Shown here piece after piece: positions 30,498-51,377 of a stretch of DNA of 64,000 nt. Below the pieces are notes generated by a model. That model searched no databases. It had not been told where the DNA came from and saw only the letters and a list, made by a program, of their open reading frames with translations. Source of the DNA: Eubacteriales bacterium (GTDB lineage Bacteria; Bacillota; Clostridia; Oscillospirales; Oscillospiraceae); the NCBI GenBank assembly GCA_030536515.1, contig JAUNPV010000003.1, forward strand, positions 78,282 through 142,281. Direction: 5' to 3'. The position numbers and the translations under genes were made by a program. The first letter of the stretch is position 1. Each line of letters begins with the position of its first letter.

Positions 30498-30560
30498 AGT
30501 AAATTAAGGAGCGATTGCCACTGGCAATCGACCTATTTTCATCTGCTGCGCAAAGCACAA
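30498..30560 (+). mobile_element. Cassette of about 62 bp inside a family-G hairpin
   Basis: GCCACCT|cassette|CCCCCGGGGGAAGG versus intact GCCACCTTCCCCCCGGGGGAAGG at about 47732. Confidence 0.7.
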
Positions 30561-50274: not shown

Positions 50275-50538
50275 AATGGCGCCTCCTTACGTTCGTTTTT
50301 TTAATTATAGCACAAATGAACGAAAAAGGAAAGCCCCAATATTAGGAAATGTGTTTATCGAAATAAAGCAGCCTGTCATTGCGATGCAATCCGCTTTCCC
50401 ATGTTTTCCAAAGGAAAACATGGGCGGCGGCCTGAGGGCAGGCCGCCCTACAGTTTTTTGAGCAAACCTGAGAAGCATTTTCGGAAAAATCAGGCGCCCG
50501 GGGGACTATACTGTAGGGGAGGGATGCGTGTGGAGAAA

Positions 50539-50976
50539 ATGGATGCAAGCCTGGAGCGCCGGGTCTGGCAGCGGGTGAGCCGGGGGCCCCAGCCCCAGCG
50601 GGAGGACCTGCGGCCTCTGGTCCAGGCCGCCCGGGAGGCGGCGGGGGACTACCGGTTTCTGGCGGCCCACCTCACCGGCGCTGCCGGGGACCAGGCCAAG
50701 CGCCTGTACGAGCTGGCCCAAGACACGGCGGCGTGCCTGCGGGGGGTCCAGCTGCTCCGGGGGGCGGCCCCGGGAAAGCAGGGGCCTGTGCCGGGAGGCC
50801 AGAGCGGCCTGCGGCCGGTGCTGGAGCGCAGCTGCCGCCGGGCCAGGACCATGGCCGGGGAGTACATGGCCAGGTCCGCCGACCCGGAATGTGGCCCGGT
50901 GTTCATGGCCCTGGCCCAGCGGGAGCAGGATGCCTTCGGCAGGTTGGTGAGCCTGCTGGGGCAGACGGGGGGATAG
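50539..50976 (+). CDS. Hypothetical helical protein, ferritin-like/spore-associated pattern
   Basis: GGAG RBS; GC3-biased; repeated Y..LA / E..H-like helices (ERRVWQRV, DYRFLA, EYMARS). Confidence 0.6.
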   Translation: MDASLERRVWQRVSRGPQPQREDLRPLVQAAREAAGDYRFLAAHLTGAAGDQAKRLYELAQDTAACLRGVQLLRGAAPGKQGPVPGGQSGLRPVLERSCRRARTMAGEYMARSADPECGPVFMALAQREQDAFGRLVSLLGQTGG

Positions 50977-51091
50977 GGGCTGGGGAAAAAATACTGGGGC
51001 GCAGCCAACAGTCCTACGGACTGCCGTCTGCGCCCCAGGGAAATCTCCCACGGCCTAAAAACGTGCCACTGGCACGTTTTCTTAACGGCCT

Positions 51092-51177
51092 TTCGATTCC
51101 CGTACGGGACCATGCAAAAAAAGACGGCTGCTTTAGCAGCCGCCTTTTTTTGCATGGTGACCCGTACGGGAATCGAA
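51092..51177. other. Long hairpin made of an inverted copy of the tRNA-Glu 3' end, the terminator, and the tRNA 3' end itself
   Basis: TTCGATTCCCGTACGGG-ACCATGCAAAAAAAG pairs with CTTTTTTTGCATGGT-GA-CCCGTACGGGAATCGAA. Confidence 0.85.
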
Positions 51178-51229
51178 CCCATGTTACCGCCGTGAAAGGG
51201 CGGTGTCTTAACCGCTTGACCAACGGGCC
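51155..51229 (-). tRNA. tRNA-Glu (TTC), CCA encoded
   Basis: GGCCCGTTGGTCAAGCGGTTAAGACACCGCCCTTTCACGGCGGTAACATGGGTTCGATTCCCGTACGGGTCACCA. Confidence 0.97.
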
Positions 51230-51305
51230 TGGTAGCGGCAATCTGATTCGAACAGATGACATACCGGGTATGAACCGGCTACTCTACCAACTGAGTTATG
51301 CCGCC
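51230..51305 (-). tRNA. tRNA-Met (CAT), elongator type, CCA encoded
   Basis: GGCGGCATAACTCAGTTGGTAGAGTAGCCGGTTCATACCCGGTATGTCATCTGTTCGAATCAGATTGCCGCTACCA. Confidence 0.93.
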
Positions 51306-51348: not shown

Positions 51349-51377
51349 ATTATAGCGGCAGGAAGCCCGTTTGTCAA
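51349..51377 (-). promoter_or_regulatory. Consensus SigA promoter of the tRNA pair
   Basis: TTGACA (51372-51377) N17 TATAAT (51349-51354). Confidence 0.85.

Follow-up and report, generated by a model that had tools for sequence, protein, structure and literature searches.

To our knowledge, the repeats that follow tRNA genes in E. coli, known since the late 1970s, have never been explained. In E. coli K-12, each 178-bp unit at tyrV (the tyrT-tyrV distal repeats, RtT or rttR, Rfam RF00391) has two copies of the tRNA 3' end: an inverted one of 10 nt, GGGGAAGGAT, some 60 nt past the CCA, and a direct one of 19 nt that includes CCA, AATCCTTCCCCCACCACCA. The two arms are predicted to close a folded core. 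tRNA and tmRNA genes are also the places where tyrosine-integrase elements reside, reportedly with the T-loop as one sublocation, as Williams is said to have described in 2002. The attC sites of integrons and the attP site of the CTX phage are folded single-strand recombination sites. Finally, template switching has been documented both to create hairpins and to perfect them (PMC8794818, PMC7202029).

Here we describe an inverted copy of a tRNA 3' end in Faecousia (Oscillospiraceae), a genus represented by gut MAGs from humans and ruminants. The window, to which all coordinates without a contig name refer, is a stretch of 64,000 nt from one contig of a Faecousia genome. In a literature search we came upon no account of cassettes like these, whether from Clostridia or from other organisms.

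Results

A palindrome runs from the tRNA-Glu T-loop through its terminator

The tRNA-Met/tRNA-Glu operon has a perfect sigma-70 promoter (51349–51377, minus strand; TTGACA-17-TATAAT, 12/12), followed by tRNA-Met(CAT) (51230–51305, minus strand) and tRNA-Glu(TTC) (51155–51229, minus strand), the latter with an encoded CCA. The segment that is copied, which we call X, is the last 23 nt of tRNA-Glu (51155–51177, minus strand) and takes in the T-loop, the 3' strand of the T-stem, the 3' strand of the acceptor and the CCA. Behind the gene stands a bidirectional intrinsic terminator, term1 (51114–51154, assigned to neither strand), in which a GC-rich hairpin sits between an A run and a T run: TGCA, A7, the stem GGCGGCTGC/GCAGCCGTC, T7 and TGCA. 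Terminator prediction placed it at 51125–51142 plus the T run. The inverted copy, X' (51092–51113, minus strand), comes next; its plus strand reads TTCGATTCCCGTACGGG--ACCA, and it forms the tRNA-proximal arm of a non-coding cassette of about 160 nt that is placed behind the tRNA's bidirectional terminator.

The complementarity falls into two blocks. The first (51092–51108 with 51161–51177) is 17 nt long, 100% complementary, and covers the T-loop, the T-stem 3' strand and the start of the acceptor 3' strand; the second (51109–51132 with 51135–51158) is 24 nt long at 96% and runs through ACCA, TGCA, the A and T runs and the terminator stem. A 2-nt gap offsets the blocks, the TC of GGGTCACCA being absent from the copy. 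Together, X, the terminator and X' make up a palindrome centred on term1 with arms of about 41 nt, which leads from the tRNA T-loop through ACCA, TGCA, the A run and the GGCGGCTGC stem and back again. The last 30 nt of tRNA-Glu with 110 nt of downstream sequence have a predicted fold of −93.6 kcal/mol that includes this long stem. A first-pass annotation, made by reading the sequence alone, had described an inverted tRNA-Glu 3' end with a 2-nt gap and a stem of about 40 bp around the terminator hairpin, and our analysis confirmed both. An assembly artefact is an unlikely source of the palindrome, because it lies inside a contig longer than 145 kb and has unique flanks, because its two arms differ by 2 nt, and because many independent MAG assemblies show this architecture.

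X' stops at the T-loop, where further tRNA body is absent, and abuts a conserved core that is common to other loci. This B-type core ('rod 1', 51038–51101, minus strand) has three helices. In P1, 51095–51101 pairs with 51038–51045, the latter being, on the tRNA strand, the vestigial direct copy GATTTCCC, which is all that is left of the direct copy (X2) at this locus. In P2, GGCC at 51087–51090 pairs with 51052–51055, and P3 is a hairpin (51057–51080) with a CCAGTGG centre, formed by an 11-nt inverted repeat at 100% (51058–51068 with 51070–51080). Beyond the core lies a second hairpin, 'rod 2' (50994–51038, minus strand), formed by a 21-nt inverted repeat at 86% (50994–51014 with 51018–51038); its lower stem is variable and its apex, GGCAGTCCGTAGGACTGTTGGC, is conserved and common to the His and other B cassettes. 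Both neighbouring hairpins had been picked out in the first reading, and both are present as inverted repeats. X', the B core and the second hairpin span 50994–51113, and promoter prediction showed no promoter inside the cassette. On the far side is a convergent protein gene of 191 aa (50401–50976, plus strand) with no Pfam family, whose 3' UTR would cross the cassette to the shared terminator. The first reading had also raised an antisense or processing device and a tRNA-like 3' end from convergent transcription; a real convergent gene does point into the cassette.

The same layout recurs behind other tRNA genes and tmRNA

We scanned the whole Faecousia genome (Oscillospiraceae; 2.63 Mb in 48 contigs, 58.5% GC, 47 tRNA genes, 98% complete) and found the same layout behind at least 18 tRNA or tmRNA genes. 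A tRNA ending in X is followed by a symmetric, bidirectional terminator, then by X' (the inverted T-arm and 3' end of the host), then by a conserved core folded into hairpins and, at most loci, by X2, a direct copy of the last ~22 nt, often with a second terminator behind it. At about 20 of the 47 tRNAs, 11–25 nt of the gene's own 3' end recur exactly, in inverted form, 33–55 nt downstream, and conserved hairpins and direct copies follow these inverted copies. The exact copy is 25 nt long at tRNA-Gln(CTG), 23 nt at His and at Ala, 20 nt at Ser(TGA) and 17 nt at Glu. In a chance test that used only the tRNA-specific last 16 nt and left out the T-loop, a cognate inverted copy scored ≥10 within 120 nt downstream for 8 of the 47 tRNAs, compared with 7 of 2144 non-cognate pairings; the tRNA-Glu copy scored 11 in this test, against a best non-cognate score of 8. 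The first-pass annotation had placed the copy at the edge of a repeated palindromic element, which is borne out, and had reasoned that a copy confined to this one tRNA would speak against its reading; a scan of all tRNA loci, as it proposed, revealed similar elements at many other tRNAs.

Two main core types were found. The A core consists of a CCRGTGG-centred hairpin, an invariant CCAGTTCAAAAACTGG hairpin with a covarying lower stem, and a third hairpin that is variable. The B core, about 60 nt long and 90–97% conserved, is a module of TCGAAAGGCCGTTAAGAAAA, a hairpin and TTTTTAGGCCGTGGGAGAnTCC; behind this module stands a second hairpin whose apex is conserved. In this genome, B cassettes stand behind tRNA-Glu, His, Tyr and Lys, and the tmRNA gene has an A cassette. 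Units are stacked in tandem, all in one orientation, behind tRNA-Pro(TGG) and tRNA-Arg(CCG). Neither core type belongs to a known family in an Rfam search, which matched only tRNA and, for a separate GTGAAAT hairpin array, Gut-1.

Such arrays make up a second repeat family behind many tRNA terminators, consisting of palindromic runs of 'GTGAAAT + short hairpin' units that start right after TTC|AG. They match Gut-1 (RF01706) with 48–74 bits and are found behind tRNA-Gln (L001:22-202, contig C41) and also behind tRNA-Leu, Gly, Cys, Lys and Thr of this genome. They insert independently, since at two loci they lie inside A-type cassettes.

Apparent orphan cassettes match the 3' ends of tRNA-Leu(GAG) and tRNA-Asn, which are several kb off, and seem to have been displaced from their tRNAs by other insertions: tRNA-Leu(GAG) has an integrase match beside it, and the tRNA-Asn-type cassette has a group II intron directly at its border. 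This last cassette, on contig C38 (C38:8250-8700), is of type B, has tRNA-Asn-matching arms and lies 7.8 kb from tRNA-Asn. Since the 3' end of the intron (domains V–VI; RT gene C38:7268-7897) abuts the left end of this cassette, the intron appears to have inserted next to the cassette terminator.

The first-pass annotation had also noticed that the loop motif of the core hairpin recurs, and GCCACTGGC-type centres are indeed found 81 times genome-wide. These hairpins, with a CC[AG][CG]TGG centre, occur in the window near 30511, 43317 and 49409, for example, and most are REP-like units of the type GCGATTGCC-ACT/GGT-GGCAATCG that lie at a distance from tRNAs. Another hairpin family, CCTTCCCCCGGGGGGAAGGTGCC-CCAGTTCGCAAACTGG, shares its stem with the cassette's invariant hairpin.

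Cassettes differ between related species

A pattern search with the A core matched 109 stretches of contig, every one of them in a Faecousia, Oscillospiraceae or Clostridia MAG. Same-strand tRNA or tmRNA ends lie within 400 nt upstream in 52 of 83 instances, mostly 91–106 nt before the invariant hairpin, and the remaining instances are mostly cut off by contig ends. BLAST with the A core gave no match in 200 genomes from other genera of the order. The B core matched 114 of 250 other Faecousia genomes, the best matches reaching 90–97% identity over ~58 nt. In the genus it follows tRNAs for Glu, His, Leu(GAG), Gly(CCC), Arg(CCG), Ala, Pro(CGG) and Ser(TGA) and forms tandem arrays with a period of ~164 nt. 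B-like modules are present in 37 of 400 other Oscillospirales genomes, from several families. There, too, they carry arms and are linked to tRNAs, among them those for Arg, Thr, Leu, Met and Asp. Not every genome of the order has this architecture: behind 62 tRNAs of five other Oscillospirales genomes we found no inverted copies.

At tRNA-Glu itself, related species vary: some lack a cassette, some have one of type A or of type B, and some have both types. In one related genome (G021) the convergent gene beside tRNA-Glu is an ortholog of the 50401–50976 ORF (41% identity, E 3e-30), so that this small protein is kept beside tRNA-Glu in one related species, and the intergenic site has an A-like cassette in place of B. 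A search of metagenome contigs with an exact 26-mer of the tRNA promoter region yielded no strain-level pair of filled and empty sites.

Other arrangements were seen farther afield. Behind tRNA-Met of a genome from another family (G169; L228:700-1000), a 12-nt inverted copy, TGGTGGGCCTTC, stands right after the terminator together with a 10-nt direct copy, GAAGGCCCAC, and the B-like hairpin is reversed in orientation relative to the tRNA. tRNA-Thr(GGT) of G067, from another genus of the family (L208), is followed by a GC-rich insert of ~190 nt and then by 24 nt that repeat the 3' part of the tRNA in direct orientation, GGCAGTTCGAATCTGCCTAGATGC; this insert has no recognisable inverted copy and may be a different kind of small tRNA-end insertion. 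Behind tRNA-Glu of G017 (L026:637-700), a 31-nt inverted segment follows the terminator and continues past the T-arm into the variable region, with no core after it. It is only ~70% like the local tRNA-Glu and looks like the inverted 3' half of a diverged tRNA-Glu. In genus g96, of another family (L231, L238), a B-like module and a direct copy of the tRNA-Asp 3' end sit inside an operon, between tRNA-Asp and the next tRNA, which indicates that cassettes are not confined to the last gene of an operon.

The arms track the host gene, and the direct repeat starts in the T-loop

Across the genus, we compared the arms of 43 loci with 29 distinct 3' ends. X2 best matched its own tRNA in 37 of the 43 loci and X' in 18, although the loci come from related genomes and are not independent, so that statistics and p-values from such relatives are overstated. 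Counted from the tRNA end, the direct repeat begins at −22 or −21, which is T-loop position 55/56, in 36 of 43 loci. On the right its boundary is diffuse, and in 16 of 43 it runs on through the terminator. X' usually spans the whole T-arm.

The cassettes behind tRNA-Gln and tmRNA have terminators that are 94% identical and cores that are 86% identical, whereas the X' between them matches each host gene instead. Because about a dozen coordinated differences lie within these otherwise near-identical units, we infer that the arm was re-copied from the host and not adjusted by point mutation under selection, which points to templating at the level of DNA. The two tRNA-Arg cassettes have one X' in common, a poor fit to either tRNA, together with direct copies that are host-derived; this looks like a state before arm correction.

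Comparison with relatives, which the first-pass annotation had also suggested, showed the same B cassette behind tRNA-Glu in eight other Faecousia species, in which X' is only about CCGTACGGGAATCGAA. In the present genome, X' has extra bases, mirrored by the TGCA after the CCA, that take the palindrome to the tRNA end. At tRNA-Glu this extension to the CCA is specific to this genome, and full-length arms are found at other loci and in other species. Arm geometry also varies between species: the CCA is in X' here and in X2 elsewhere. The first reading had suggested a hairpin-templated copy made when a REP-like element inserted. A templated origin fits best, since the CCGTACGGGAATCGAA-type arms are all that the eight relatives have and the extra bases here carry the palindrome across the terminator to the CCA; the element, however, belongs to a tRNA-linked cassette family and is not a generic REP. 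The accompanying argument that integrases leave direct, not inverted, repeats overlooked that most family members hold both an inverted and a direct copy.

The B core is a conserved, covarying structure

All three helices of the B core are supported, with 99.8% of cells paired. Six pairs have changed on both sides, including GGCC:GGCC to GGGC:GCCC, and the covariation score was reached by none of 500 shuffles. The unpaired internal loops are almost invariant, and the core is 90–97% conserved across species with flanks that are only ~75% identical. The cassette stems are almost all Watson-Crick on both strands (G-U ~1.3%); the functional strand is therefore not callable from G-U versus A-C asymmetry, and palindromes at the level of DNA are plausible.

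Two other readings were rejected. In a kink-turn reading of the conserved internal loop, the sequence proved by inspection to be off consensus. Against a tRNA-like gene on the opposite strand, the anticodon-like loop CCAGTTTTTGAACTGG stays the same from one host tRNA to the next, and both a D-arm and a 5' acceptor strand are missing.

Discussion

A proposed tRNA-linked DNA cassette with arms re-copied from its host

We observed a family of units with A and B cores, host-specific arms, a direct repeat that starts sharply in the T-loop, tandem arrays, differences between species and covarying core helices. Our preferred reading, to which we give a probability of roughly 0.55, is that X' at tRNA-Glu is the tRNA-proximal arm of a tRNA-linked DNA cassette that moved at the T-loop junction, with its arms re-copied by template switching. 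On this account, cassettes would be gained, lost, swapped and amplified as DNA at the T-loop junction by a trans-acting factor. After arrival, the arms would be re-copied from the host gene through intrastrand template switching across the X-terminator-X' and X'-core-X2 inverted repeats, which would be the same process that corrects quasipalindromes. In this genome, such re-copying would have extended X' through the terminator to the CCA and so produced the palindrome with ~41-nt arms. Most tRNA transcripts would end at the terminator before X', and the cassette would be present only in read-through RNA or in the 3' UTR of the convergent gene.

We found no recombinase, transposase or other mobilising factor tied to the cassettes. 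The genome has 10 matches to tyrosine recombinases, none of which adjoins a cassette, and the reverse transcriptases found are of the group II intron type only and are unlinked to cassettes. Y1/RAYT transposases (PF01797) were found in control genomes and not in this 98%-complete assembly, a result that falls short of proving absence.

We also considered whether the architecture could arise as a spontaneous inverted triplication between the T-arm and terminator palindromes. This predicted core-less X'-X2 hairpins, which were found at 0 of 85 loci, and the idea is kept only as the arm-copying step. Because no such intermediate was seen among the 85 loci, spontaneous template switching alone does not make the architecture, and the core or its partner must be part of the cause. 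A purely selfish DNA reading does not account for a B core that is conserved, unpaired loops included, while the flanks diverge. This conservation looks like selection on a functional RNA or on a protein-binding site.

Alternatives to the mobile cassette

The next best explanation, which we hold to be possible and clearly less probable than a mobile DNA cassette, is a functional RNA module like RtT. The cassette would be excised by tRNA-processing enzymes through arms that mimic or pair with the tRNA 3' end, giving a small RNA or a processing or quality-control element, and selection for pairing would keep the arms matched to the tRNA. The E. coli tyrT/tyrV repeats have this very design, with an inverted copy, a direct copy with CCA and an arm-closed core, and P1 of the B core likewise pairs the inverted with the direct copy to close the core. 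The rtT RNA is reported as a product of the tyrT/tyrV operon in 10.1101/2024.07.17.603846, which cites earlier work and describes its mode of action as still unknown; that the E. coli counterpart is known as a processed RNA counts against the DNA-element reading. The strong conservation of the B core, internal loops included, and the covariation of its helices also point towards RNA. Most family members end with a direct copy of ~19–22 nt (only GATTTCCC at the tRNA-Glu locus), and many units end in X2-CCA and then a second terminator, like the small RNAs between the dual terminators of E. coli rrn operons (PMC8144298). However, a strong terminator separates the tRNA from the cassette, no promoter is seen within it, arm geometry differs between species, and the stems are nearly devoid of G-U pairs. 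Host-specific arms between near-identical cassette parts need templated copying rather than selection on point mutations. No Rfam family matched, RF00391 included: its covariance model matched nothing in this region of the window with the E cutoff set at 10, and nothing in six other loci with a cutoff of 0.01.

We regard it as rather doubtful that the cassettes are miniature integrative elements served by a recombinase in trans, with the folded X-terminator-X' hairpin mimicking the T-arm and 3' end as an attachment site and exchange in the T-loop leaving X ... X' ... X2. If a folded hairpin site were integrated as a single strand, the expected order would be X - loop - X' - core - X2, as is seen here, and the sharp T-loop junction, the coverage of the full T-arm by most X' and the tandem units in one orientation are consistent with such an element; integrases classically target tRNA and tmRNA genes, and tyrosine recombinases do occur in the genome. 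Yet no recombinase is linked to the cassettes, which are non-coding, and the integrase matches lie elsewhere. Integrase elements use one or very few tRNA targets, whereas one core family is found here behind at least 18 different isoacceptor types plus tmRNA. Moreover, T-loop exchange with a foreign element would give the tRNA the wrong acceptor strand, and the tRNA-Arg loci, which combine a host-type tRNA and X2 with a foreign X', fit target duplication better than crossover.

We hold about as little confidence in a self-addressing form of mobile DNA, in which the inverted and direct arms would guide pairing with both strands of the tRNA 3' end for insertion at the T-loop and would then be rewritten for each host. 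Were this true, one protein-less cassette family could colonise any tRNA gene, from Clostridia to E. coli (as RtT).

A one-off local event, whether a duplication by fold-back, what is left of a tRNA-Glu pseudogene in convergent orientation, or an error of assembly, could account for an arm to the CCA that at tRNA-Glu is specific to this genome, and assemblers can produce palindromes, but it is highly improbable given the same architecture at many tRNAs here and in independent assemblies, a copy that abuts a conserved core common to other loci, and an end at the T-loop with no further tRNA body.

The genus Faecousia provides hundreds of naturally occurring variants, which fall into two core types, stand behind many host tRNAs and differ in how complete their arms are. 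These variants show arms copied from the host gene and a junction at one point of the T-loop. They make it testable whether such repeats are mobile elements that carry their own address or RNA devices within tRNA operons, and by what means long perfect palindromes arise and are maintained beside essential genes. The cassettes also account for many contig breaks and odd 'partial tRNA' matches in gut metagenome assemblies.

Comparison with known systems

Of general mutational processes, quasipalindrome correction by template switching (PMC7202029, PMC8794818) explains the near-perfect arms, the one-step multi-nucleotide changes and a terminator palindrome that extends into its flanks, but neither the conserved core nor the spread between tRNA loci. 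REP and BIME sequences are likewise short, structured intergenic repeats, and the loop motif CCRGTGG is common to ~60 REP-like hairpins elsewhere in this genome; the cassettes differ in being strictly tRNA-linked, in one orientation and armed with copies of the host gene, and no Y1/RAYT was found. Retroviral primer-binding sites share a stretch complementary to the tRNA 3' end, including TGG for CCA, whereas the cassettes have no retroelement context.

Integrase elements and the cassettes both have a direct repeat of the tRNA 3' part from the T-loop and keep the tRNA intact, both use tmRNA, and units can stack. The cassettes, however, are 160–190 bp long, without a gene or an integrase; one family serves many isoacceptors, and an inverted copy is added. 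With attC and the CTX attP, in a comparison of topology alone, they share an imperfect palindrome that could mimic a duplex target and the matching product order X - loop - X' - element - X, while the cassettes give no evidence for single-stranded intermediates, Xer/IntI sites or a recombinase.

The closest likeness is to RtT. In both, the unit follows immediately on the 3' side of a tRNA gene and is oriented like it, contains inverted and direct copies of the tRNA's own 3' end whose arms close a folded core, and occurs in tandem. The Faecousia cassettes have no sequence similarity to RtT, and unlike RtT they are separated from the tRNA by a strong bidirectional terminator, can have a full-length inverted arm fused with the terminator palindrome, use the same cores for many tRNAs and, at tRNA-Glu, have a vestigial direct copy. 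To the RtT-type repeat design known from E. coli, the Faecousia units add a terminator-centred palindrome and service to many tRNAs.
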